From: Chitinophagaceae bacterium
GTDB lineage: Bacteria > Bacteroidota > Bacteroidia > Chitinophagales > Chitinophagaceae
Reading direction: 5' to 3'
Assembly: GCA_031360425.1 (NCBI GenBank)
Contig: JANMBO010000108.1
Span: 6,486 to 70,485, forward strand
DNA length: 64,000 nt
A program made the position numbers and the translations under genes. The notes below the pieces were generated by a model. It was not told where the DNA came from. It saw only the letters and a list, made by a program, of their open reading frames with translations, and searched no databases. Position 1 is the first letter of the stretch, and every line of letters begins with the position of its first letter. Of this stretch, positions 2,740 through 46,677 are shown piece by piece.

Positions 2740-3747
2740 ATGAAAGTTGCAGTTGTAGGAGCCACCGGATTAGTAGGCACAAAAATGTTACAGGTATTAG
2801 CAGAACGGAATTTTCCCGTTACCGAATTAATTCCCGTTGCCTCAGAAAGATCGGTCGGAAAAGAAATTGAATTTAAAGGGAGGAAATATAAAGTGGTAAG
2901 TATGATGGATGCTATTGCCGCTAAACCGGCCGTGGCATTATTTTCCGCAGGCGGTGGTACATCACTGGAGTGGGCCCCTAAGTTTGCCAAAGCGGGAATA
3001 ACAGTAATTGATAATTCCTCAGCCTGGCGCATGGATCCTGCCAAAAAACTAATTGTACCGGAAATAAATGCAGATGCATTAACTAAAGAAGATAAAATAA
3101 TTGCCAATCCCAACTGTTCTACCATTCAAATGGTGGTGGCATTGAATCCGCTGCACAAAAAATATGTAAGCAGGCGAATTGTAGTGAGCACTTATCAAAG
3201 TGTAACGGGTACCGGGGTAAAAGCCGTAGATCAATTAAACGGGGAACGGGAAAAAGCGATTAAAGGGAATGGGGCCGAATATCCTATGGCCTATAAATAT
3301 CCCATCGACCTGAATGTAATTCCGCAGATTGATGTGTTTTTAGATAATGGCTATACCAAAGAAGAGATGAAGATGGTACATGAAACAAAGAAAATTATGC
3401 GCGATGATTCCATCCGGGTTACAGCCACTACGGTTCGTATTCCGGTAATGGGCGGGCACAGCGAAAGCGTAAATATTGAATTTGAAAAGGAGTTTGATTT
3501 GAGTGAAGTGAAGGCGTTGTTGCAGGCGGCTCCCGGCGTAGTAGTGGTGGATGAACCAGGTGCACAAAAATATCCGATGCCAAAAGATGCACATGAAAAA
3601 GACGATGTATTTGTTGGAAGATTGCGACGGGATGAAACGCAACCAAAGACACTTAATATGTGGGTAGTTTCTGACAACCTCCGGAAAGGAGCTGCTACCA
3701 ATGCCGTGCAGATTGCGGAATATCTTGTTGAAAAAGGATTGTTGTAA
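2740..3747 (+). CDS. asd: aspartate-semialdehyde dehydrogenase
   Basis: MKVAVVGATGLVGTKMLQVLAERNFP N-terminus, NPNCSTIQMV active-site Cys region, and typical length of about 335 aa. The start is placed at the ATG at 2740, preceded by GGAGGG; the ORF-track start at 2719 is less likely. Confidence 0.93.
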   Translation: MKVAVVGATGLVGTKMLQVLAERNFPVTELIPVASERSVGKEIEFKGRKYKVVSMMDAIAAKPAVALFSAGGGTSLEWAPKFAKAGITVIDNSSAWRMDPAKKLIVPEINADALTKEDKIIANPNCSTIQMVVALNPLHKKYVSRRIVVSTYQSVTGTGVKAVDQLNGEREKAIKGNGAEYPMAYKYPIDLNVIPQIDVFLDNGYTKEEMKMVHETKKIMRDDSIRVTATTVRIPVMGGHSESVNIEFEKEFDLSEVKALLQAAPGVVVVDEPGAQKYPMPKDAHEKDDVFVGRLRRDETQPKTLNMWVVSDNLRKGAATNAVQIAEYLVEKGLL

Positions 3748-7578: not shown

Positions 7579-10500
7579 ATGCGTAAATTCATCTTCAAAT
7601 CACTTCCTATGATAAAGACAGTTTACTTGGTTCTGTTGGGTATTGTGTTTGGTAGTACTTCTTTTGCCCAATTGCTCATTACGGCTCCTGCTTTTCCAAA
7701 AGACACATCTGGCATTTCCATAACCGTTGATTGCGCCAAGGGGAACCAGGGATTATTCAACTATTCGAATACAAGCGATGTATATGTTCATGTGGGAGTT
7801 ATTACCAACCTTAGCAGTGGTGCTTCCGATTGGAAGTATTCAAAGTTTGCCTGGGGATCTACGGACGGAGCTGCCAGGGCTACCTCAGTGGGTAATAATA
7901 AATATCAATACGTTATTAATAATATACGCAGTTTTTTTGGCGTACCATTATCGGAAACGATTCTAAAAATATCCATTCTTTTCCGCAATGGAACCGGAAG
8001 TACGGTACAACGAAATGCTGATGCGAGTGATATGTATATTCCTATATACGGTACTGATCTGGCTGGTAAATTTATACTTCCTCTCATAGAGCCTAAGTAT
8101 ATTCCTACTCCGGAGCCTATTACAAAAAGCATTGGCGATACTATTCGCATTACCTGGTTCAGCAATCACACAGCCGATCTGAAGACATTTTTTAATGGAA
8201 CTCAAACCAATGCAGTATCTTCTTCCAACGCCATACTGGATTCAGTTGTTATTAGTGCAACAGGTAACCAGCAGGTAGTAGCCAGGGGTACTGAAGGAGT
8301 CATCACTATTTCAGACACTATTAATTTTTTTGTTGCCCCGCTAGCAAATATTTTACCGCTACCGGCGGGAACCAGGGACGGTATTAATTATGAACCGGGA
8401 GATACTTCTGCCATCCTTGTTTTATATGCTCCCAACAAGGCGAGGGTTTCAATACTTGGAGACTTTAATAACTGGCTGGAGAATACAAATTACCAAATGA
8501 ATAAAACTCCCGATGGCCTCCGGCATTGGATAAGAATTATAGGGCTTGTTCCGGGAACAGAATATGCCTATCAGTATGTTGTTAATGGAAACCTGAAAAT
8601 AGCGGACCCATATACTACTAAGGTGTTGGATCCAAGCAACGATCCTTTTATCAGTTCAATTACCTATCCTAACCTAAAAGCCTATCCCAACGGAAAAGCC
8701 ACTGGCATTGTTAGTGTATTGCAAACAGCAAAGCCTGCTTATACCTGGCAGGTTACCAATTTCAGCCGGCCTGATAAAAGAAGCCTTATTATTTACGAAT
8801 TATTACTCAGAGATTTTGTTGATAAGCACGATTGGAAAACCCTGAAGGATACTCTTTCCTATCTAAAAAATCTTGGCGTCAATGCAATTGAATTGATGCC
8901 CATTAATGAGTTTGAAGGAAATATTAGCTGGGGGTATAACCCATCTTTTTATTTTGCCCCCGATAAATATTACGGGCGGGATAGCAGTTTAAAAGCATTT
9001 ATTGATGAGTCCCACAAACAGGGTATTGCTGTTATCATGGACATTGCATTAAATCATTCCTTTGGCCAGTCGCCCATGGTACAATTGTATTTTGATGCAG
9101 CCAATAACCGGCCGGCGGCAGACAACCCCTGGTTCAATCCGGCGGCAAGACATGCCTTTAATGTAGGGTATGATATGAATCACGAATCTCCGGCTACCCA
9201 ATATTTTGTTAGTCGTGTGGTTGAGCATTGGCTAACCGAATACCACATCGATGGATTCCGCTTTGATCTTTCGAAAGGATTTACTCAAACCAGTACCTGC
9301 GATGCTAATGGAAATAATTGTAATGTAAATGCATGGAGCGGGTACGATGCATCGCGGGTGGCGATCTGGAAAAAATATTATGATACGCTGCAATTGAAAT
9401 CTGCCGGTAGTTATGTTATACTGGAACATTTTGCTGCTAATACGGAAGAAAAAGAATTGTCCGACTATGGTATGCTGTTATGGGGGAATATGAATTATAA
9501 TTTTAATGAGGCGACAATGGGGTTTGTAACCAATTCAAACTTTGATGGGGCATTACATACCAGCCGGGGTTGGGGTAATCCACATTTGATTGCCTATATG
9601 GAAAGTCATGATGAAGAAAGGTTGATGTATAAGAATATAAAATTTGGAAATTCATCAGGTAGTTATAACGTAAAGGATATAAATATTGGGTTACGTAGAA
9701 ATGAAATGGCTGCTTCCTTTCTTTTTATGATGCCCGGTCCTAAAATGATCTGGCAATTTGGAGAAACCGGGTACGATTATTCAATTAATAACTGCGCTAA
9801 CGGAACAGTGAGTAGTAATTGCCGCACCGATCCAAAGCCGATCCGCTGGGATTATTTACAGGAACCGAATCGAAAACTGCTGGAAGATGTAACTGCGGGG
9901 TTGTTGAAACTACGGGCACACCCGCTTTTCAAAAATGGATTTGTTACAGACCGGGTTGAAAAGAGTTTGAGCGGGGCATTCAAATGGTTGAAATTAACGA
10001 CTGATACTTCGAATGTCTTAGTTGTCGGAAATTTTGATGTTACTGCCACCACGGGTTCTGTTACTTTTCAAAATGCGGGTACCTGGTATGATTATTTTGG
10101 TGGTAATACCATAACTGCTTCCGGCGTTGCCCAAACAATTTCTTTGCAACCTGGCGAATACCATGTTTATGTAAACAGGAACGTTACCAATATTGTTTCT
10201 CCCGTTACCGATATTATCTATAACGGGAAACGCATCCGCTTAAGCGTTTATCCTAATCCAGTTCGTCACCAGGCCACTATTGAATATGAATTACCTGAAA
10301 CCGGGAAAGTGGATTTACGATTGGTTAATATCAGCGGGCAGCAGGTAGCAAATATATATGCGGGTTTTAAGGTTAAAGGAATTTACCGACTTTCATTAAA
10401 CCAGTTACAGGGCCTGTATAAATTACCAGCGGGTACCTATTTCCTGCAACTGGAGTTTGGGCAGCGTAAACTGGTTCAAAAACTGGTGCTGGATTTTTAG
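7579..10500 (+). CDS. secreted GH13 alpha-amylase-family glycoside hydrolase with T9SS (Por_Secre_tail) C-terminal sorting domain
   Basis: GH13 regions VIMDIALNHS, DGFRFDLSKGF, ILEHFA and YMESHDEERL. The C-terminus LSVYPNPVRHQATIEYELPETGKVDLRLVNISGQ is T9SS CTD-like. The start is set at MRKFIFKSLPMIKTVYLVLLG (signal peptide); the ORF-track start at 7438 is probably too far upstream. Confidence 0.85.
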   Translation: MRKFIFKSLPMIKTVYLVLLGIVFGSTSFAQLLITAPAFPKDTSGISITVDCAKGNQGLFNYSNTSDVYVHVGVITNLSSGASDWKYSKFAWGSTDGAARATSVGNNKYQYVINNIRSFFGVPLSETILKISILFRNGTGSTVQRNADASDMYIPIYGTDLAGKFILPLIEPKYIPTPEPITKSIGDTIRITWFSNHTADLKTFFNGTQTNAVSSSNAILDSVVISATGNQQVVARGTEGVITISDTINFFVAPLANILPLPAGTRDGINYEPGDTSAILVLYAPNKARVSILGDFNNWLENTNYQMNKTPDGLRHWIRIIGLVPGTEYAYQYVVNGNLKIADPYTTKVLDPSNDPFISSITYPNLKAYPNGKATGIVSVLQTAKPAYTWQVTNFSRPDKRSLIIYELLLRDFVDKHDWKTLKDTLSYLKNLGVNAIELMPINEFEGNISWGYNPSFYFAPDKYYGRDSSLKAFIDESHKQGIAVIMDIALNHSFGQSPMVQLYFDAANNRPAADNPWFNPAARHAFNVGYDMNHESPATQYFVSRVVEHWLTEYHIDGFRFDLSKGFTQTSTCDANGNNCNVNAWSGYDASRVAIWKKYYDTLQLKSAGSYVILEHFAANTEEKELSDYGMLLWGNMNYNFNEATMGFVTNSNFDGALHTSRGWGNPHLIAYMESHDEERLMYKNIKFGNSSGSYNVKDINIGLRRNEMAASFLFMMPGPKMIWQFGETGYDYSINNCANGTVSSNCRTDPKPIRWDYLQEPNRKLLEDVTAGLLKLRAHPLFKNGFVTDRVEKSLSGAFKWLKLTTDTSNVLVVGNFDVTATTGSVTFQNAGTWYDYFGGNTITASGVAQTISLQPGEYHVYVNRNVTNIVSPVTDIIYNGKRIRLSVYPNPVRHQATIEYELPETGKVDLRLVNISGQQVANIYAGFKVKGIYRLSLNQLQGLYKLPAGTYFLQLEFGQRKLVQKLVLDF

Positions 10501-12761: not shown

Positions 12762-15734
12762 ATGACCCTCAAACGACTGCTTCAGGCAAGCTCATTGCTG
12801 TCGCTATTATTAATTTTCTCTCTCGGGGCCTTTGCCCAGGAAAAAACAATTTCCGGCAAGGTCACTGACTTCAAGGACGGATCTCCTATATCAGGAGCAT
12901 CAGTTGTTCCAAAAGGTGCGTCCACTGCGGGAACAACTACTGGTCCAGATGGTACTTTCCGTCTGAATGTTGGTGGAAAAGTTACTTCTCTTATCATTTC
13001 TTATGTTGGGTACGGTACTGTAGATATATCAATCTCCGATAAAACTATCGTAGATATTAAATTATCGGCTGCCGGTTCTAACCTTAATGAGGTAGTGGTA
13101 GTTGGGTATGGTACTGCCCGGAGACGCGACCTCACTGGTGCGGTTACCTCAATCAGGGAAAGAGATTTCAACAAAGGAGTAATTACTTCTCCCGATCAAC
13201 TAATTCAGGGAAAGGCTGCAGGTGTTTTGGTTATTAATAATACTGGCCAGCCTGGTGGATCAACAACAATAAGAATCCGTGGTTCCTCTTCCATCAGGTC
13301 CGGTAACCAGCCATTATTTGTAATTGATGGAGTTCCTTTATCCGGAAATTCTTCCCGTCCTGGATCCAGCGGGGCTGATTTTGGAAGTGACGGCGGTAAC
13401 CCTCTTAGTTTTATCAATCCAAACGATATTTCAAATATAGAAATCCTGAAAGATGCATCCGCAACGGCCATTTACGGTTCTAGAGGAGCAAACGGGGTGG
13501 TGATGATAACTACTAAACGTGGTCAGTCTGGAGCGCCTTATTTGGATGTTAACTCCTCTATTGGTGTTTCAACTGTTTTAAAGAAACTGGACGTATTAAG
13601 CGGCGATGAATACAGAAAGGCATTAACTGATTATGGTGTGACCAGCGGTAATTATGGCAAAAGTGAAGATGCATTTAAAGCCATTACACAAACGGCGATT
13701 ACGTCCAATAGTAATATAGCTTTCGGTGGTGGTAATGAAAATGGCCGATATCGTTTTTCCCTCGGTTACCTGGATCAGGAAGGGGTTGTCAGGACTTCTG
13801 ACCTGAAAAAAATAACCGCCAATCTTACCAGCAACTTCAAATTTCTTCAAAACAGAAAATTAGGGCTGGATTTCAATATCCTGGTAACACAAACCGATGA
13901 AGATATTGCTCCTGTTTCCGCTTTTGCGGGTTTTACAGGAAATGTCATCGCTCAGGCATTGCAATGGAATCCGACGTTAAATTTGAGAAAACCTGACGGT
14001 TCAATAAATCCTTTTCCAGTAGGAAACACAACTATTAATCCTTTGTCTTCATTGGAATATTATAAAGATAAAGCCAGGGTTAATACTATTATTGCTAGCG
14101 TGGCGCCATCGTATAAGATAACTGACGATTTGGAATACAAGGTCTTGTTTAGTGTAAATCGCCAATCAGGTGTTAGAAAAGGAATGGCAAATCGTCTTCT
14201 GAATTTACAGGGTATTGAAAATCGGGGGTTAGCATTTATTAATAATAGTGAGCAAACCAATACGCAAATTACCCATACCCTGAATTATAATAAGCAGATT
14301 ACTTCTTCAATTAATTTAAATGCAGTAGCCGGTTACGAATGGCTGACATTTAATAGCAGGGGTAATGGCGTGAGCGGAAGGGATTTTTCTAACGTCGGGT
14401 TGAATTATTACGATATCCTTCAATATTCTACAACCGCAGACAGATCAATTGGTTCTGGTATTAATCCTACTACCGAATTGCAATCTTATTTTGCCCGGGC
14501 AATTTTGAATTATAAAGATCGATATTTAATTACGGGTACATTCAGGGCCGATGGCTCAACAAGGTTTGGTAAAAATAATAAATATGGGTACTTCCCTTCT
14601 GTAGGATTTGCCTGGAACGCTACAAACGAATCATTCCTGGAAGGAAATAAAATATTTGATAATCTGAAACTGCGTTTAGGTTGGGGTACAACCGGTAACC
14701 AGGAATTCCCTTCAGGCGCTTCGCAGGATCGCTTCGCGGTAACCGGAATTGGAACTTTCTCCCAGACAAACTTTGGTAATCCTGATTTGAAATGGGAAAC
14801 TTCTGCAACGAGCAATGCGGGGGTTGATTTTAGCGTGCTTAATAGCAGATTGAGCGGATCTATAGATTATTTTTATAAGAAAACAACGGATGTACTGTTT
14901 GAAAGAACACTGGCCCAACCTGCCCCATCCGGAAAAATTTGGGTTAATTTGGATGGATCTGTCATAAACAAAGGAGTGGAAATAACCTTATTGGGCGCAA
15001 TAATCAGGAACAGTGATTTCACCTGGAACTTGGGAGGTAATGCTTCGTTCCTTCAAAATGAAGTTACCGGGTTAGTGGGTTTTTATGAGACCGGCGATTT
15101 GAGAGGACAGGGATTTTCAGGAGTCTTAGGTCAAAGAGTGGTTAGTGGACAGCCATTAAATGTTTGGTACCTTGCCATACATGAAGGAATTGATAAAACT
15201 ACCGGTCAGAGTATTTATACTGGTGGTGACCCTGCTTCAAACAAATTTTATTTAGGAAGCCCCAACCCCAAAACCATATTGGGATTGTCGACTGATGTTG
15301 CTTATAAGAAATTTACGGCAGCACTTAACTTCAACGGAACTTTTGGACAATACCTGTTTAATAATACAGCTGCTACGGTCTTGGGAATTGGTAATTTAGG
15401 AAATAGAAATATTGCTAAGAGTATATTGAGTGGTGGTGTAAAAGAGGCTATCTCTAATGCCCCGGCTCCTTCTAACCGTTACCTGGAAAAAGGAAATTAT
15501 ATTAAGCTGGCAAACGCTACTCTCAGCTATCGGGTAGGTAAAATAGGAAATGTGATCAGAAACTTAAACATTTCTTTGACTGGCCAAAACCTTTTTGTGA
15601 TTACAAAATACACTGGTTTTGATCCCGAAGTCAACACGGATGCAGGATTTGGCGGTATACCTTCTTTAGGGGTTGACTATATTCCCTATCCTTCTGCAAG
15701 AACAATAATATTAGGAGTAAACTTTTCTTTATAA
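12762..15734 (+). CDS. SusC/RagA-family TonB-linked outer-membrane transporter
   Basis: Signal peptide, CarboxypepD_reg-like GKVTDFKDGSPISGASV, plug region (NEVVVVGYGT..DQLIQGKAAGV), and a C-terminal ..GVNFSL ending in an aromatic/aliphatic residue. Confidence 0.92.
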   Translation: MTLKRLLQASSLLSLLLIFSLGAFAQEKTISGKVTDFKDGSPISGASVVPKGASTAGTTTGPDGTFRLNVGGKVTSLIISYVGYGTVDISISDKTIVDIKLSAAGSNLNEVVVVGYGTARRRDLTGAVTSIRERDFNKGVITSPDQLIQGKAAGVLVINNTGQPGGSTTIRIRGSSSIRSGNQPLFVIDGVPLSGNSSRPGSSGADFGSDGGNPLSFINPNDISNIEILKDASATAIYGSRGANGVVMITTKRGQSGAPYLDVNSSIGVSTVLKKLDVLSGDEYRKALTDYGVTSGNYGKSEDAFKAITQTAITSNSNIAFGGGNENGRYRFSLGYLDQEGVVRTSDLKKITANLTSNFKFLQNRKLGLDFNILVTQTDEDIAPVSAFAGFTGNVIAQALQWNPTLNLRKPDGSINPFPVGNTTINPLSSLEYYKDKARVNTIIASVAPSYKITDDLEYKVLFSVNRQSGVRKGMANRLLNLQGIENRGLAFINNSEQTNTQITHTLNYNKQITSSINLNAVAGYEWLTFNSRGNGVSGRDFSNVGLNYYDILQYSTTADRSIGSGINPTTELQSYFARAILNYKDRYLITGTFRADGSTRFGKNNKYGYFPSVGFAWNATNESFLEGNKIFDNLKLRLGWGTTGNQEFPSGASQDRFAVTGIGTFSQTNFGNPDLKWETSATSNAGVDFSVLNSRLSGSIDYFYKKTTDVLFERTLAQPAPSGKIWVNLDGSVINKGVEITLLGAIIRNSDFTWNLGGNASFLQNEVTGLVGFYETGDLRGQGFSGVLGQRVVSGQPLNVWYLAIHEGIDKTTGQSIYTGGDPASNKFYLGSPNPKTILGLSTDVAYKKFTAALNFNGTFGQYLFNNTAATVLGIGNLGNRNIAKSILSGGVKEAISNAPAPSNRYLEKGNYIKLANATLSYRVGKIGNVIRNLNISLTGQNLFVITKYTGFDPEVNTDAGFGGIPSLGVDYIPYPSARTIILGVNFSL

Positions 15735-17408: not shown

Positions 17409-20400
17409 ATGATGAAAGTTGAATTACCATCATTGTTGAAAATAATATTACCCTCCTTCTTGCTCATTACTTCCTGTAAACAGAAAGAACCTCACCCTGC
17501 TCTTTTTGAATTGAAAAAAAACACAGGAATCATCTTCACTAATACAGTAACGAATTATAAGGATTTTAATATTTTCAGTTATCGTAATTTTTACAATGGA
17601 GGCGGTGCTGCCATCGGGGATATTAATAATGATGGATTGGCAGATGTATTTTTCACTGCTAACATGGGCAGCAATAAACTATTTTTAAATAAAGGTAACT
17701 GGCAGTTTGATGATATTTCAGAAAAAGCGGGTATTGCCGGAAGGGATCAATGGAATACAGGAGTGGTAATGGTTGACATCAATAACGATGGCTGGTTAGA
17801 TATATATGTATGCAATGCGGGGTATATGAACGGACAGATACCTAAAAGTAAATTATACATCAATAATAAGGATTTGACTTTCACCGAGGAGGCGGAGGCT
17901 TATGGATTATCCAATACCGGGGGATACGCTACCCATGCTGCTTTTTTTGATTATGATCTCGATGGCGATCTTGACGTATTTATTATCAATAACAGTTTTA
18001 TACCTGTCAACACGCTGAACTATGCTAATAAAAGGGAAATAAGGGCAAAGGATTGGCCGGTTGAAGATTTTTTGAAAGGTGGAGGCGATCGGTTTCTGCG
18101 AAACGACCATGGGAAGTTTACAGACATCAGCGAACAGGCCGGCATTTATGGAAGCCTGATTAGTTTTGGTTTAGGCGTTACTGTGGGGGATGTAAATGGA
18201 GATCACTACCCCGATGTGTATGTTTCCAATGATTTTTTCGAACGTGATTACCTCTATATTAACCAGCGTAATGGTACTTTTAAAGACGAGTTGGAGCAAC
18301 GGGTTCGTCATCTCAGTCATTCTTCGATGGGCGCCGATATGGCAGATATAAATAATGACGGTTATCCAGATTTGTTTGTAACGGAAATGCTTCCTGATAA
18401 CGATTTCCGGCTAAAGACAACTACTTCATTTGAAAACACCGATGTGCAGCGGTTAAAAGTAAAATCTGGTTTTTATTACCAGTTTATGCAAAACACACTG
18501 CAAATAAATGAACAGAACGGGAAGTTCATGGAAACAGCTTACTACAGCGGTGTGGCGGCTTCCGACTGGAGCTGGGGCGGGTTAATATTTGATGCGGACA
18601 ATGATGGATTATCGGACATATATGTTTGTAATGGTATTTACCACGATGTTACCAACCAGGATTTTATCGACTTTTTTGCCAACGACGTTATTCAAAAAAT
18701 GACGATGACTGGAGAAAAAGAACAAGTAGAAGAAATCATCAATAAAATGCCCTCGGTTCCTATACCCAATAAGGCATTCAGAAATTTGGGAAATTTGAAA
18801 TTTGCCGACTCTGGAAAGCAATGGGGATTTACTGAACCGTCCTTCTCAAACGGAGCCGCTTATGGCGACCTGGACAACGACGGCGACCTGGATTTGATTG
18901 TTAATAATGTAAATGAACCGGCCTTTGTTTATAAAAATAACAGCCGCGAACAAAATAAGAATAATTATATCGGAATTGTACTGAAAGGAAGAGATCAAAA
19001 TACTTTTGCCGTTGGCAGTACTGTGAAGATTTACCAGGGCGACCAGGTTATTACGCGCGAATTAATCCCCAGCCGGGGCTTTCAATCTTCAGTAGATTAT
19101 AAAATAATTGCCGGACTGGGAAATAAGACAGCCGACTCTGTGGTGATCACCTGGCCCGATCGCACCAGCACCAGGCTTGATAAGCCGGCTATTAATAAAA
19201 TTCATGAAGTTCGGCAGGGAAGGGAATTATATATTGCCCCAATACTTAGTACGAATCAAATAAGCACCCTATTATACCCTGTTCAGCAAAATTTTGATAA
19301 GCATACTGAAGATGATTTTATTGATTCGTATTACGATCGGAATATACCTCATGTAATTTCACGGGAGGGTCCTCACGCGGCACATGGCGATGTGAACGGC
19401 GATGGATTAGAAGATATTTATATCGGGGGGGCTCGCAAGCAAAGCGGGCAATTATATATTCAAACCCGCGACAGATTTTTTAAGAAACCGGAAGCAGCTT
19501 TTGAACGATTTGCTGAATACGAAGATGTGGCCACCCTATTTTTTGATTGTGATAAAGATGGCGACCTGGACCTGTTTGTTGGATCCGGTGGAAATAACCG
19601 CGATGCAGGAAGTCCTGAAATGCAAAACCGTCTTTACAAAAATGATGGAAAAGGAAATTTTGAATTCGATAGCACCTCGTTACCTAAAAGCGGATTTAAC
19701 TGTGCCGTTGTGGTAGCAAACGATTTTGATGAAGATGGGGATATAGACTTATTTGTAGGTAGCAGAAGTATCCCATTGAATTATGGTCCCGCTCCGCAAA
19801 GTTTTTTATTGCAAAATGACGGCAAGGGAAAATTTACCGATGCTACTAAAACAATTTGCCCGGCCCTGGACAAAATAGGATTGGTAACAGGAGCAGTATG
19901 GGTTAATGTACTAGGGGATAAAAAGAAAGAATTAGTGGTAGTGGGTGAATGGATGGCGCCCCGCCTATTCCGCATAATTGAAAATCGTATGGAAGAAGTG
20001 AAAACTTCTTTAAATGCCACCTATGGTTGGTGGCAAACGATAGCTGCTGCAGATTTGGATGGTGATGGTGACGAGGACCTGGTACTGGGGAATATCGGAG
20101 AAAATTTTTATCTCCATCCCGATGAAAAAAATCCAGTTAAGTTGTGGATAAATGATTTTGACAAAAATGGATCAGTAGAAAAAATCATTACACGCACCAT
20201 AGAGGGAAAAGATATGCCGGTATTCCTAAAAAGAGATCTCACTGACCAGGTAGTCTCTTTAAAGAAACAAAATTTGAAATACGAAGACTTCGCTAATAAA
20301 TCGATTCAGCAATTGTTCAGCCCGGAAATAATAAGTACCTGCACAGTGGGACTATTTAATTTCACCAGTACCTGTATTGCATTAAATGAGGGAGAAGGAA

Positions 20401-41573: not shown

Positions 41574-44500
41574 TTAGTCTAAAATGGGTCTCAACCACCT
41601 CGTCATTTCCTCTTTGCTCATTCCCTTGCGCCGGGCATAATCATTCAATTGATCTTCTTGTATCTTACCCACTCCAAAATACTGGCTCTGCGGATGACTG
41701 AAATACCACCCACAAACAGAGGAAGCAGGATACATGGCTAAGGATTCTGTAAGATGAATGCCGGTGGCTTCTTCGCCCCCTAATAGCTCAAAGAGTTTAT
41801 ATTTTTCGGTATGATCCGGACAGGCCGGATAACCTGGTGCAGGGCGAATACCCTTATATTGTTCTTTAATCAATTGTTCGTTTGTGAGTGTTTCATTTTT
41901 GTCGTACCCCCAAAATTCTTTTCTGACTCGTTGGTGCATACATTCAGCAAATGCTTCTGCGAAACGATCGCCCAGTGCCTGCAACATAATCTTATTATAA
42001 TCGTCGTAGGCGGCTTCAAATCTTTTAATGTGCGGTTCAATACCTTTAATGGTAACGGAGAAGGCGCCAATGAAGTCGGCCCCCTGTCCCCCGAAGGGGG
42101 AACTCAAATCTGAATTTTCCTTAATACTCTTTTGACTCTTTAAAATCGAAGAGATGGTTGATAATACTGTTTCTGTGTTATTAAGCACTTGCAGATTAGT
42201 AAACCGGATTACTTTAAATCCTTTTAAATCTAACCATTCGGTGCGTTCTTCATCCGATACTTTATTACCCGGCAATTGATGAATTAGTCCATCAATTTCA
42301 ATAATCAATCTTTTGTCAAGGCAAACAAAGTCTGTAATAAAATTTCCAATGATATGCTGTCTTCTGAACTTATATTCTTCTAATTTTTTTGTTTTAAGAA
42401 GCTCCCATAACACTTGCTCCGCTTCGGTAGGTTTTGACCGATGTTTAAGGGCATACTCTTTTAATAAAGGATATATAACAGGGTCTGCCCAATGATAACC
42501 GGGTTCTTTCTCCACTTCCCCCCGGGAAGGGGCTTTAACAGCATCTTGTATTGTTTGAGAGGTATGTCGGGATGGGCTTGGTTTTATGAAATCTGCGAGA
42601 CTGAGATTCGGTTGGTCCGCTACTTTTTTAATTTGTTGGCGGAGTGTTTCAAGATAGATTTTCCCTGTTGCTGTTTTTACTTCGATGATGTCAGGTGCAA
42701 TGGTGCCTGCTTCCCAAAATCCGATAACACCCTGGGCGGTCAGCCATTTTTCATTTACAATTTTATCGAGCAAGGAATTTGCATCGTTGTACAACTTAGT
42801 AGCTTCTATCCCTACTTTTGAATCGGTAAGTATTTCAGGAAAATTTCCATGAAGCTCCCAGGAGATAAAGAAAGGTTTCCAGTCGATATATTTACGAAGT
42901 TCCGACAGATCGTATTCCAGGAAAATCTTAGTGCCGGTAAAAGTTGGCACCACGGGTGTATAATTTTTCCAGTCAATTTTTACCCGGTTATTCTTTGCAT
43001 CGGTATAGGATAAATATGCTTTTGTTACTTTCTTATTTTCAAAATCACTCTTCAGTTTTATATATTCCTCTTTTGTTTTGGCAAGAAACCCTTCTTTTTG
43101 TTCGTTCAATAAGGAACCAGCTACCGTAACGCTGCGGCTTGCGTCTAATACATGCACTACCCCCTCGTCGTATTGTGGAGCTATTTTTACCGCCGTATGC
43201 ATCCGCGAGGTAGTAGCGCCACCAATCAATAAGGGTTGTTTCATGCCACGCCGTTTCATTTCGTGGGCTACGTTTACCATTTCATCCAGGGAGGGCGTGA
43301 TAAGGCCACTTAAACCGATGATATCTGCTTTTTCTCTTTCGGCAGTATCTAATATTTTATCGGTGGGTACCATTACACCAAGGTCTACAATATCGTATCC
43401 ATTACAACCCAATACTACACCTACAATATTTTTACCAATATCATGTACATCTCCTTTTACCGTAGCTAATAAAATTTTTGCAGCCCCAGCGCCCTCTTCA
43501 TTCACAGTACCTGCTTTCAGATGGGCCTGTCTGCGTAATTCTTTTTCGGCTTCTATATAAGGAGTGAGTACGGCTACCGATTTTTTCATTACCCGGGCAC
43601 TCTTTACCACCTGGGGCAAAAACATTTTTCCGGAACCAAATAAATCTCCCACCACATTCATGCCTGCCATTAGCGGGCCCTCAATAACATCTAACGGCTT
43701 GGGATATTTTTGACGTGCTTCCTCTGTATCGGCATCTATATAATCGGTAATGCCATTTACTAAAGAATGTTTTAACCGTTCTTCCACACTGGTACCCCGC
43801 CATGCTTCATCTTTTACCGTTACTTTTCCTTTTGCTCTTACGGTTTCAGCAAAAGCAATCAGTTTTTCGGTAGCCTCGTTGTTGGTATTATTGCGGTTTA
43901 AAATAACGTCTTCGCAGAGTTCCCGCAATTGGGGTTCTATTTCATCATACACCACCAACAGGCCGGCATTTACAATGCCCATGTTCATACCTGCTTTGAT
44001 GGCATAGTATAGAAATACGGAGTGCATGGCTTCCCGAACAGACTCGTTGCCACGGAAAGAGAAAGAAAGATTGCTTACGCCACCACTGATACCGGCGAGG
44101 GGCATTAATTGCTTTATTCTCCTGGTGGCATTAATAAAGTCAACCCCATAATTATTATGCTCTTCCAGCCCGGTGGCAACGGCAAATATATTGGGGTCGA
44201 AAATAATATCTTGTCCATCGAAACCTACCTGTTCGGTAAGTATTTTATAAGCCCGGTGACAAATTTCTACTTTGCGATCTTCGGTATCCGCCTGTCCTTT
44301 TTCATCGAAGGCCATTACAATAACGGATGCGCCGTAACTCATGCAAATGATTGCCTGCTCAATGAATTTAGACTCTCCCTCTTTCATCGAGATGGAGTTT
44401 ACAATTGATTTCCCCTGTACGCATTTTAATCCTGCTTCAATAATTCCAAATTTGGAGCTGTCGATCATTACCGGAATTTTGGCAATATCCGGCTCACTTT

Positions 44501-44774
44501 GTAAAAGGTTAATGAAAGTAGTCATGGCCTGTACTCCATCCAGCAACGCATCATCCATGTTTACATCAATTACCTGCGCACCGCTTTCCACCTGTTGCCG
44601 GGCTACGCTCAATGCCTCTTCGTATTTATTTTCTTTGATAAGACGCGCAAATTTTTTAGAGCCGGTTACGTTGGTGCGCTCACCAATGTTTACAAAATTT
44701 GTTTCGGGACGAACAACCAATGGTTCTAATCCTGATATGCGCAAAAAGGGTTTAATATGTAAGGGTTCGCTCAT
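41574..44774 (-). CDS. metH: methionine synthase (cobalamin-dependent): pterin-binding, B12-cap/B12-binding and AdoMet-reactivation modules, carrying a foreign in-frame insertion
   Basis: [31 protein letters not shown] (pterin domain), [15 protein letters not shown] (DxHxxG B12 motif), [13 protein letters not shown], and reactivation domain ..[24 protein letters not shown]. Confidence 0.93.
42084..42578 (-). mobile_element. in-frame DUF559 / Vsr-like (PD-(D/E)xK-fold) endonuclease cassette inside metH (boundaries approximate)
   Basis: About 165 extra codons lie between ..LADFIKP and GADFIGAF... They contain [42 protein letters not shown]-rich palindromes flank the nuclease core at 42087-42101 and 42515-42532. 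Confidence 0.6.
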
Positions 44775-44779
44775 GATAA

Positions 44780-45781
44780 TTATACTAATTCCCTGTCAAC
44801 TACGGGTAATGAACGCGGAGTAATTTCCTTAACGTGGTCTGCAATATGTTTTATATGATCTGGGGTGGTGCCGCAACATCCTCCCACTATATTTACAAAT
44901 CCTTCTTTAGCCCAGTCTTCCAAATAATGACCTGTATCCTCCGGGTTTTCGTCGTATTCTCCCATGGCATTGGGCAGGCCCGCGTTTGGATAGGCCGAAA
45001 CATAACAACTGGCTAAATGCGATAGTTCCGCAATATGGGGCCTCATTTCTTTGGCGCCTAATGCACAGTTTAATCCAACACTTAATGGTTTTGCATGCAT
45101 GATGGAAGTATAAAAAGCCTCGAGCGTTTGCCCGCTCAAAGTTCTTCCGGAAGCATCGGTAATAGTACCACTTATCATTATTTCTTTTTTCGCCGCGTCT
45201 GGATGTTGACGGAAGAATTTTTTGATGGCGAATATTGCGCCTTTCGCATTCAGCGTATCGAAAATGGTTTCTATCAGTAGTATATCTACTCCTCCGTCTA
45301 CCAACCCTTTTACCTGTTCGTAATAAGCAGCTACTACTTCATCAAACGTAACGGCCCGGTAACCGGGATTGTTTACATCAGGGGAAAGCGATAAGGTTTT
45401 GTTTAGCGGCCCGATGGCTCCGGCTACCCACGCATGCTTGCCTGATTGCCGGATGGCCTCGCGAGCGCATTGGGCGGCTGCCACGTTTAATTCATAGGCC
45501 AATGACTGCATTTCATAATCGGCCATAGCAATAGAAGTACTGCTGAAGGTATTTGTTTCGATAATATCAGCCCCTGCATCCAGGTATTGTTTATGTATTT
45601 CGGTGATGATATGCGGTTGGGTAAGGCATAATAAATCATTGTTGCCTTTTACATCGAGGTGCCAGTCTTTAAACCGTTCGCCCCGGTAATCGGCTTCAGA
45701 AAGTTTATAGCGCTGAATCATGGTTCCCATAGCGCCATCGATGATGATAATACGTTTTTCGAGTTCTTTACGAATGTCCAT
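44780..45781 (-). CDS. metH: homocysteine S-methyltransferase domain protein (N-terminal module of a split MetH)
   Basis: [39 protein letters not shown] and [14 protein letters not shown] (Zn-binding Cys cluster). The stop lies 5 nt before the start of the downstream metH ORF. Confidence 0.9.
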
Positions 45782-46056: not shown

Positions 46057-46677
46057 TCAGCGATTGGAGACATAACTTTCAACCGGCATCCGGTTCTGGA
46101 GGCTTCTGCCGAGGGTGAGTTCATCTGCATATTCCAGTTCACCGCCAAAGGCAATGCCCCGGGCAATAGTGGTAATCCGTATGGGGGCTCCGGCCAGCTT
46201 TTTTTGTATATAATATATGGTAGTATCTCCCTGGATGTTCGGGTTTAGAGCAAATATTAATTCTTCCGTTTTTTCCTTTTGAATACGATGCAGCAACGGT
46301 TCAATAGCAAGCTGATCGGGGCCGATACCATCTAATGGGGAAATAATACCCCCTAATACATGATACGTTCCGCTGAATTGCTGGGTACTCTCAATGGCAA
46401 TAACATCCCGTATATTTTCCACTACACAAATAATATCCTGGTGACGCATGCTATTGGCGCAGATGGAACAGATATCGGCATCGGCCACATTGAAACAACG
46501 CTGACAAAACTTGATTTCCTTGCGCATACGGATTACGGCCTCGCCCAGGTTCTCCACTTTTTCCGGATCTGTTTTCAATAAATGCAACACCAGCCGTAAA
46601 GCCGTTTTCTTACCAATACCCGGCAGTTTGCCAAATTCGTTAACTGCATTTTCCAGTAAAGAGGAAGAGAATTGCAT
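46057..46677 (-). CDS. recR: recombination protein RecR
   Basis: FGKLPGIGKKTALRLVLHLL (HhH), Zn-finger C..C..C..C (FCQRCFNVADADICSIC), and a Toprim region (ICVVENIRDVIAIE). The start is set at MQFSSS. Confidence 0.92.
   Translation of the reverse strand: MQFSSSLLENAVNEFGKLPGIGKKTALRLVLHLLKTDPEKVENLGEAVIRMRKEIKFCQRCFNVADADICSICANSMRHQDIICVVENIRDVIAIESTQQFSGTYHVLGGIISPLDGIGPDQLAIEPLLHRIQKEKTEELIFALNPNIQGDTTIYYIQKKLAGAPIRITTIARGIAFGGELEYADELTLGRSLQNRMPVESYVSNR

Follow-up and report, generated by a model that had tools for sequence, protein, structure and literature searches.

A candidate selfish element: a DUF559 endonuclease gene between hairpin-bearing ends, nested in frame in a Chitinophagaceae methionine synthase gene

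Vsr-like ('EDxHD') homing endonucleases, which include I-Bth0305I and the 'fractured genes' nucleases (Dassa et al. 2009 PMC2677866; Taylor et al. 2011 PMC3239194), are selfish enzymes that target conserved housekeeping genes. Each is a multidomain protein whose gene has a start and a stop codon of its own and resides in a group I intron, between split-intein halves or between gene fragments, the host gene being either restored by splicing or left in pieces. Vsr, DUF559 and I-Bth0305I have been placed in one group (Steczkiewicz et al. PMC3424549), and hairpins beside nuclease genes were also remarked by Dassa et al. (PMC2677866). Here we describe a DUF559 endonuclease gene that lies in frame within metH, the gene for B12-dependent methionine synthase, in a 64,000-nt stretch of a Chitinophagaceae contig (JANMBO010000108.1, positions 6,486 to 70,485; this whole stretch is hereafter called the window). 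We propose that this cassette (42078-42578) is probably one copy of a small selfish element, in which hairpin-bearing ends enclose the nuclease gene and whose spread is of the homing type. Unlike the EDxHD endonucleases, it has no splicing element and would be translated within its host protein, and it consists of a bare core of ~120 aa, without N-terminal DNA-binding regions, accompanied by terminal repeats and by derivatives of the MITE kind (miniature transposable elements with inverted repeats).

Inteins with a nested homing-endonuclease domain also lie in frame at conserved sites of essential proteins and are translated with their hosts; as with the cassette, their nuclease is thought to drive homing and they decay to nuclease-less mini forms. 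They have no hairpins or terminal inverted repeats (TIRs), whereas the cassette has no Hint domain, splicing residues or excision, so that its host must work with an extra domain. Measured against homing endonuclease genes as a class, the cassette shows presence/absence polymorphism at one precise site among close relatives, but it is neither in an intron or intein nor free-standing with its own start and stop. IS200/IS605 elements are tiny, have subterminal hairpins, make no target-site duplication and give rise to non-autonomous hairpin derivatives, all features shared with the cassette; unlike it, they encode the HUH transposase TnpA, which acts through a covalent intermediate, and their hairpins are not inverted copies of each other. 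We know of no IS200/IS605 element that serves as an in-frame protein domain.

Among repeats, the closest parallels are the Rickettsia palindromic elements (RPEs; Ogata et al. 2000, reviewed in PMC10969869) and other intragenic MITEs (Delihas, PMC2229807). As far as they are outlined in that review, RPEs are palindromic repeats that lie in frame in unrelated metabolic genes, in loops and compatibly with the fold, like the mini-cassettes and solo units described below; they are presented there as short and without coding capacity or a known enzyme of their own, whereas the cassette carries an autonomous-looking, conserved nuclease gene and its ends double as linkers. With MITEs as a class it shares dispersed TIRs; the window copy encodes an enzyme, and the enzyme-less state is found in its relatives L133, L062 and L119. 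REPIN-RAYT systems (Bertels & Rainey 2011 PMC3116915; PMC3337134) likewise consist of a nuclease gene between inverted cognate hairpins, with the same hairpins dispersed as doublets, and their inheritance is largely vertical and long-lasting. RAYT, however, is an HUH (Y1) transposase that is usually single-copy and intergenic, while the cassette is a multi-copy PD-(D/E)xK nuclease, often nested in frame.

The metH open reading frame (ORF) passes without interruption from host sequence into the cassette (SPSRHTSQ...SSPFGGQGA) and back into host sequence (DFIGAFSVT..), exactly as an initial annotation of the window had read it (coordinates in Table 1). Its product matches MetH structures in the PDB at E=0 and contains pterin-binding, cap, cobalamin and activation domains (Pfam PF00809, PF02607, PF02310 and PF02965), the match to the last of these (Met_synt_B12) being broken into two stretches by the insert. 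Solved MetH structures have 4-6 residues at the insertion point (E. coli 3BUL, 403 to 407; human 9SSP, ~1089 to ~1094), and because alignments to both jump only this far, about 165 codons of the window gene are extra, as had been estimated. The host sequence resumes at the start of a conserved beta-strand (residues 300-310 of the AlphaFold2 model; predicted local distance difference test, pLDDT, 87-94). To delimit the cassette we used nuclease-less MetH relatives, identical ends in other host genes and two intergenic MITEs (L062 and L119). Since these independent MITEs carry both ends, the limits are fixed at 42578, where the initial annotation had put the left one, and at 42078, 6 nt or two codons beyond the 42084 proposed for the right one; GGQGA is counted as cassette because the same end recurs in other host genes and MITEs. 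The nuclease core has a GC content of ~33%, compared with ~43-45% in the surrounding gene. Two GC-rich palindromes that had been noticed do bracket the nuclease and lie where they were placed, but they are not similar copies of one another, as had been thought: the window's two hairpins belong to two different types, its left end being a second end type.

The insert is a DUF559 domain (PF04480, E 2.7e-33, 114.5 bits against a cut-off of 20.6, profile positions 4-108 of 109), which bears out the family assignment that had been made from motifs. NCBIfam gave a below-cut-off match only, to the DUF559 equivalog PRK09767, and PHROGs gave weak matches only, to families of unknown function and an HNH-annotated family. 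Against the PDB, phmmer returned the DUF559 structure 3HRL as sole sequence match (E 2.8e-19) and none to 3R3P (I-Bth0305I) at E<=10. We rejected a link to Vsr or I-Bth0305I at the sequence level as undetectable; it is visible in fold comparison only, where Foldseek placed the catalytic domain of I-Bth0305I (3R3P, E 1.3e-4, TM 0.74) second after 3HRL (E 5.5e-8, TM 0.88), followed by 1VSR (E 0.05), so that the cassette and the EDxHD endonucleases have the same catalytic fold. Conservation across 118 MetH-nested copies is 98% or higher at Y..ADP, FRRQH, the TDF Asp, E-x-D-G-x-x-H and an Arg downstream. The window copy keeps the active-site residues (TDF, EIDGLIH), catalytic-type residues are invariant in a mixed alignment of 54 copies (alignment A2), and the ratio of nonsynonymous to synonymous divergence (dN/dS) in the nuclease core is about 0.1-0.3. 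Judged from these sequences, the nuclease looks functional and is under purifying selection.

In the AlphaFold2 model of the activation domain plus insert, the host part has a pLDDT of 88-96 and the nuclease one of 65-89, and values drop below 50 in the two linkers (model residues 133-160 and 285-298). Modeled alone, the insert has a core with pLDDT ~90 and disordered linkers, with no extra domain beyond the ~120-aa core. The cassette is thus predicted to be translated as a folded nuclease domain, attached through disordered linkers rich in Pro, Gly and Ser, one on each side, to a surface loop in the activation domain of MetH.

Such an insert might instead be removed before the enzyme matures, by hairpin-guided RNA excision, atypical protein splicing or proteolysis of the linkers. 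The outer C-run at the left end and the outer G-run at the right end of canonical copies could pair and so join the junctions, and the predicted disorder of the linkers would make them protease-accessible. Removal is nevertheless very improbable in our judgment. All 118 MetH copies, like every other nested one, have a frame that is open across the two junctions, although RNA excision needs no frame, and simple proteolysis, though conceivable, would not rejoin the host protein. We rejected an intron or known RNA, as Rfam, introns included, gave two chance-level matches only at E<=1. An intein, of which the initial annotation had also seen no features, was rejected as well: the metH product has no Pfam match to an intein or Hint family, and splicing residues are absent, the first residue being variable (S/G/A/R) and the end reading GA before the host D, with no His-Asn and no Cys/Ser/Thr at +1.

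Nearly all nested cassettes are flanked by two perfect GC-rich hairpins, one per side; stems measure 5-10 bp and loops usually 3 nt, and on the coding strand the pyrimidine arm always comes first. Perfect GC-rich hairpins with a stem of at least 6 bp lie within 150 nt of the nuclease core upstream in 22 of 32 cases and downstream in 21 of 32, compared with 2.3% of 5280 background windows, an enrichment of ~30-fold. The stems vary between cassette lineages yet are fully paired (CCCCTTCCC/GGGAAGGGG, CCCCTCTCC/GGAGAGGGG, TCCTCCCC/GGGGAGGA, or C5-6/G5-6); as they differ in sequence but remain paired, it is the pairing that is preserved and not the peptide. The window's left hairpin is of the CCCCTTCCC type, which is also found, with other loops and compensated stems, in other main-lineage cassettes at this MetH position (site B). 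Hairpin type tracks the nuclease clade, not the host gene, suggesting a cognate nuclease-hairpin pair. Across cassettes, left loops are purine-rich and right loops pyrimidine-rich, matching the expectation for inverted repeats. Canonical copies end in 5'-GCCCCCC-xx-CCCCCC-RAA-GGGGGG ... CCCCCC-TTY-GGGGGG-xx-GGGGGGC-3', with the same terminal repeat at both ends (L006, L011, L021, L030 and L125); in the MetH cassette L006 it is the window's right-end repeat that stands at both. Because these ends encode linkers (pyrimidine arm, loop and purine arm reading P/S...G/E), the element can sit in essential genes without an intron or intein.

The terminal hairpins, which had been put forward as possible recognition or mobility determinants, are the termini of the element and are common to a dispersed MITE family. 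At least 120 metagenome loci contain the 21-nt core of the window's right terminal repeat (consensus aGGCCCCCTGTCCCCCGAAGGGGGAACTTAGGT). Complete MITEs of 109-274 bp have this right-end repeat at both ends of an AT-rich non-coding interior, and the intergenic MITEs L062 and L119 are bounded by the window's own pair of left and right ends. The left terminal segment also occurs in L062 and L119, in the mini-cassette L133, and before the left hairpin in MetH cassettes L002-L005, L091, L106 and L145. Among the metagenome loci listed, 56 of 131 terminal-repeat copies lie inside open frames of at least 250 aa. Solo units of 21-30 nt (C5-N3-C5-N3-G5) are found in frame, reading APLPPEGG one way and PPSGGRGA or SPFGGQGA the other, and recur in histidine-kinase HATPase_c domains, aspartate kinase, the MetRS C-terminal domain and IleRS (examples from metagenome loci L028-L147: L049 3012-3032, L097 12137-12157, L034 7010-7030 and L086 2761-2781). 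Mini-cassettes are in frame in IleRS (L015) and in an ORF for the homocysteine (Hcy) domain (L014) as well. Solo units, doublets (MITEs and mini-cassettes) and nuclease cassettes are therefore three forms of the element, each of which can be read through.

Several loci show more complex arrangements of these units. Tandem arrays of hairpin units with a 72-nt period occur in L087 (112-276) and L032 (~13750-14030), with one frame open (..EEKAPLPPEGGFLDHADAHLFALG.. repeated), apparently within the N-terminal region of a protein. In the Hanamia metagenome-assembled genome (MAG) L010 (2764-4296), a DUF559 core stands between two complete mini-cassettes, which form direct repeats of ~180 nt; the arrangement is at the extreme N-terminus of an NTP-transferase gene, and the frame begins within the end of the upstream gene. 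On the minus strand of L114, a mini-cassette (SPSPQTNFSVQGFTEAPSRKEGEK...) is nested within the C-terminal linker of a full MetH cassette; elements therefore insert into each other. An Actinomycetes MAG (L023) has a free-standing DUF559 gene preceded by three left-type hairpins (2822-2943, 51-nt spacing) and followed by an inverted right-type hairpin (3326-3343), and the association of hairpins and nuclease therefore reaches beyond Bacteroidota.

The initial annotation had pictured a selfish nuclease cassette that colonizes tolerant protein loops in frame, a picture borne out by every computational check that it called for, and had looked to further copies, free-standing and nested; many were found. 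In-frame copies with the same kind of hairpins occur in more than 20 protein families besides MetH, and in Bacteroidota as a whole such elements break up dozens of essential genes. A genome scan, with one genome per species, gave 24 loci, whose nested hosts include several aminoacyl-tRNA synthetases and a helicase (Table 1), and metagenome loci add acetyl-CoA synthetase (Acs) and CinA. Many of the insertions are in a loop beside a strongly conserved motif, for example before VWFDAPIGY, TTRPDT, TTRPET or VMTATPIPRT. A search with the insert only returned free-standing DUF559 proteins of 120-140 aa along with fusions to Hcy-methyltransferase, IspG, an alpha/beta hydrolase, RNase H and TGT. In a profile search of 1.84 billion cluster representatives, 45,247 matched at E<=1e-3; in ~55 of the best 150 of these, the domain is internal in a long protein (300-1270 aa). 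According to Pfam it splits SpoIIE phosphatases, adenine deaminase, LeuRS, MnmE, RecQ, RecJ, SpoIID, DegT and UDP-GlcNAc 2-epimerase. Numerous database entries are fragments that start inside the cassette. The top-scoring representative (P0241, 377 aa) has three DUF559 stretches in one protein, suggesting tandem cassettes.

We also compared the states of the MetH site among relatives. The best 120 matches of a whole-protein search are 74-94% identical to the window's MetH, come from Chitinophagaceae, Ferruginibacter and Agriterribacter, and stem from assemblies of NCBI, JGI, ENA and Logan, some of their contigs being 1-5 Mb long. When 121 MetH were aligned with MAFFT, 118 had a DUF559 segment at exactly the window codon, always in frame, and nine loci showed the same architecture when read at the DNA level. 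A chimeric contig that joined metH to a DUF559 gene, or an annotation error, is thus a negligible prospect, given that more than 100 non-redundant proteins, drawn from the four sources, share this architecture at the one codon. The segment is present in more than 100 independent assemblies and absent from MetH of unrelated phyla, and the cassette is not unique; these comparisons exclude both an assembly artefact and an ancestral domain of MetH.

The remaining 3 of the 121 lack the nuclease: P0158 (FIKP-TPDSRLPTP-DYIGAF), P0211 (FIRP-THDSRLTTHEQGS-DYIGAF) and P0231 (FIAP-ESTGLQ-DYLGAF). The loop of P0231 looks native, and a native short loop is also present in E. coli and human MetH. Nuclease-less alleles at the same site, which had been anticipated, therefore exist, but the nearest are not naive targets. 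In L148, which encodes P0211 (aa ~733-745), the sequence before the host GAC is GAACAGGGATCC, compared with GGACAGGGGGCC in occupied alleles; 9 of 12 nt of the right end are retained, preceded by a 7-nt tandem repeat (ACTCACG) in ~4 copies. L001, which encodes P0158, has (GACTCCC)x4 at the metH insertion site (~8196-8230). We rejected L001/P0158 as a naive empty target: the right-end remnant of L148 and the 7-nt tandem repeats in both mark deletion scars. As each 7-nt copy shifts the frame by one, the repeats may reflect frame-restoring slippage after imprecise deletion. The occupied allele of L002 and the nuclease-less allele of L001 are 94.7% identical in nucleotide sequence across the flanking gene. 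The metH of L001 (587-kb contig) has an extra C in a homopolymer near its 3' end (~8600-8637), giving a protein of 878 rather than 912 aa; this is either an assembly error or a pseudogene, and the allele is to be used with caution.

Other relatives show decay and replacement. On the minus strand of L133 (~560-680), site B holds a mini-cassette of about 38 codons between KP and DYIGAF, with both ends and no nuclease, and the same protein has a full cassette at another position, the cap/cobalamin linker (site A). In some MetH of ~1200 aa a second cassette fills site A, and the Hcy-domain ORF has a third MetH cassette site, before IMISGTITD. More than one cassette lineage has occupied site B, since the cassette of L014 at the window codon has quite different hairpins and a nuclease that clusters with the IleRS and RecG cassettes, and since P0122 has, at the same codon, a C-terminal linker that matches cassettes of the Hcy-domain site. 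We rejected the P0122 cassette as a clearly distinct lineage on core identity, which is weakly discriminating (68% vs 63%); linker similarity and L014 are better evidence for lineage replacement.

Local loss of synonymous divergence (dS) accompanies the cassette. Between the window and L002, whose proteins are 94% identical, dS is 0.14-0.20 over the cassette, compared with 0.28-0.91 elsewhere and 0.7-0.9 in the adjoining windows, and the cassette value is the minimum of ~120 sliding windows; in the rest of metH, L002 is closer to L001 (94.7% nt) than to the window (90%). The LeuRS genes of L018 and L019 have 3 mismatches in 700 nt around the cassette (L018 2700-3400) and 5-10% divergence in most of the gene, and the MetRS pair L009 and L011 has a relative dS trough beside the cassette. 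The troughs in these three pairs point to lateral exchange, which would make the cassette locally younger than its host gene. At the junction in L002, informative sites include a 25-nt patch at which L002 equals the window, although this could equally be an L001-specific change. The MAGs of L018 and L019 are assigned to different families (Flammeovirgaceae and Cyclobacteriaceae), and the two genes differ by a 21-nt indel just upstream of the cassette.

Together, these data suggest a model of homing-type spread. The nuclease would break or nick element-less alleles, or its own hairpin repeats, and recombinational repair from an occupied copy would then copy the element in, giving homing between alleles and, rarely, entry into new sites. 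Selection would leave only in-frame, loop-located insertions. Copies would lose the nuclease, persisting as mini-cassettes or MITEs, and would end as deletion scars, so that a site may pass through a cycle of gain, fixation, mini-cassette decay, loss and regain.

A number of observations weigh against this model. Host and insert divergence are positively correlated (Pearson 0.45, 118 MetH); inheritance is therefore mostly vertical, and movement of the element may be rare. Composition or ordinary mosaic recombination could account in part for the dS troughs, and L018 and L019 carry other low-divergence blocks in a mosaic background. The nearest empty alleles are scars; no close relative offered a naive target, and no gain could be identified unambiguously. 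No target-site duplication and no common target motif were found at seven canonical insertions or seven complete MITEs, and no common flanking motif at the seven canonical insertions. It is hard to see how a core of ~120 aa with no extra DNA-binding domain would recognize many host sites, and as a PD-(D/E)xK nuclease cannot itself join DNA, the model leaves entry into new sites unaccounted for. Finally, a nuclease is nearby in 11 of the 120 terminal-repeat loci, among the matches listed, and the hairpin repeats may therefore be spread by something else.

This last point leads to the main rival, in which what moves is the hairpin repeat or MITE, mobilized in trans by an enzyme other than DUF559; the latter would be a passenger or a secondary parasite, for instance a homing gene directed at the MITE, whose arms would serve it as homology. 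The metH cassette would then be a MITE into which a nuclease gene came later. Besides the many repeat copies without a nuclease, the in-frame solo units in many proteins, the nuclease-less MITEs and mini-cassettes with exactly the window's ends, and the mutual nesting of nuclease cores and mini-cassettes in L010 and L114 would all fit such a history. We nonetheless regard it as unlikely, albeit less so than domestication, cryptic splicing or artefact. No other candidate transposase stands beside the repeats in the loci examined, hairpin type follows the nuclease clade as expected of a cognate pair, and free-standing DUF559 genes in other phyla are also flanked by inverted hairpins of their own (L022 and L023). 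This alternative also overlaps the homing model, as under both the element would be selfish and would lie in frame within its host.

The vertical signal could also mean that the insert is a domesticated, immobile domain that benefits the cell, as a piggy-backed repair or defence nuclease or as a regulator of MetH reactivation. Domestication would produce both the correlated divergence of host and insert and the long in-frame persistence of an insert whose active site is conserved across more than 100 MetH that have diverged to 74-94% identity. The same cassette, however, is present in more than 20 unrelated enzymes, which makes a MetH-specific role unlikely; the site shows loss, mini-cassette decay and replacement by other lineages; the dS troughs point to lateral exchange; and the ends belong to a dispersed repeat family. 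A known defence system was rejected, as PADLOC gave one marginal match (mREase_II, E 0.006) and no other defence-system family. We therefore consider domestication improbable.

In the full-text literature searched (subscription-only articles excluded), we met with no paper that portrays DUF559 as a domain nested in frame or as a TIR element's own gene. What sets the locus apart is the combination of a homing-type nuclease gene with an intragenic MITE, and there is a substantial chance that it represents a distinct, unrecognized class of element and accounts for the function of DUF559. A broader proposal, that DUF559 proteins are the mobility enzymes of a previously unrecognized class of prokaryotic element comprising 21-30-nt solo hairpins, doublet MITEs or mini-cassettes and ~500-bp nuclease cassettes, is one that we advance tentatively, as it falls a little short of probable. 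If this is true, homing-type nucleases would have a fourth lifestyle beside intron, intein and free-standing gene, one in which a nuclease gene parasitizes essential genes merely as an open frame and brings its own flexible linkers. It would also give a biological role to DUF559, with its more than 45,000 cluster representatives, and offer a testable one for the GC-rich 'PxxGEG / PFGGQGA' repeats found throughout the proteins and intergenic regions of Bacteroidota. For annotation, it matters that gene callers often split or mis-start cassette-bearing genes. For protein engineering, the cassettes amount to a natural inventory of positions at which aminoacyl-tRNA synthetases, helicases, MetH and other proteins accept a 17-kDa domain, and they bring natural linkers; cognate nuclease-hairpin pairs may yield new sequence- or structure-specific nucleases for enzymology. 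They would also illustrate, for protein evolution, the origin of domain insertions while it is under way.

Table 1. Features of the metH locus in the window, and in-frame cassettes in other genomes (positions are those of the window; loci elsewhere are given by handle)
Feature	Position or locus	Strand	Remarks
metH, B12-dependent methionine synthase without Hcy domain	41574-44774	minus	1066 aa including insert; from ORF list, Pfam and PDB
Host codons DFIGAF	42060-42077	minus	Directly 3' of insertion point; aligns to E. coli ADYIGAF
Entire cassette	42078-42578	minus	501 nt, 167 codons, MetH aa 733-899; no start or stop codon of its own
Right terminal repeat TTGAGTTCCCCCTTCGGGGGACAGGGGGCC (gene sense)	42078-42107	minus	30 nt; TIR of dispersed MITE family
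Right hairpin TCCCCCTTCGGGGGA (gene sense)	42087-42101	minus	6-bp stem, TTC loop, encodes SPFGG; within terminal repeat
DUF559/Vsr-like PD-(D/E)xK nuclease domain, GYHWADP...ILKSQ	42141-42500	minus	MetH aa 759-878
Left hairpin CCCCTTCCCGGGGGGAAG (gene sense)	42515-42532	minus	6-bp stem, 3-nt loop, encodes PSRGE; type CCCCTTCCC-N3-GGGAAGGGG
Left terminal segment AGCCCATCCCGACATACC...GCTGTTAAAG (also read AGCCCATCCC...GCTGTTAAAG)	42533-42578	minus	First part of N-side linker
Host codons ADFIKP	42579-42596	minus	Directly 5' of insertion point; conserved in E. coli (LADFVAP), human and all relatives
Hcy-binding domain ORF of split MetH	44780-45781	minus	333 aa, PF02574 E 3e-101; 5 nt from metH
MetRS, in-frame cassette	L009, L011		
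LeuRS, in-frame cassette	L018-L020		
ValRS, in-frame cassette	L021		
IleRS, in-frame cassette	L015		
RecG, in-frame cassette	L024		
PaaZ-like enzyme, in-frame cassette	L012		
NTP-transferase, in-frame cassette	L010		
MetH site A in Flavobacteriaceae genome, in-frame cassette	L013		

Elsewhere in the window there is no second copy of DUF559 or of the hairpin motif. Three other inverted repeats of a C-run and a G-run lie at 1970-1980 (CCCCTCGGGGG), 19067-19078 (CCCCAGCCGGGG) and 46337-46353 (GGGGAAATAATACCCCC), and the element's terminal-repeat motif is absent from all three. The initial annotation had taken the gene for a MetH minus its Hcy domain, and this domain is indeed encoded by a separate upstream ORF (Table 1), a split that is also present in L001, L002 and L148. 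The cassette site of the Hcy-domain ORF is empty in the window and filled in P0009, P0034, P0077, P0250 and P0265. Site A of the window (43419-43568, MetH aa 403-452) is unoccupied as well. Its DNA holds no clear repeat remnant, but the linker is ~15 residues longer than in E. coli, and its end (..EEGAGAA before KILLATVKG) is faintly like the ..GGxGA end of site-A cassettes and may be an old scar.

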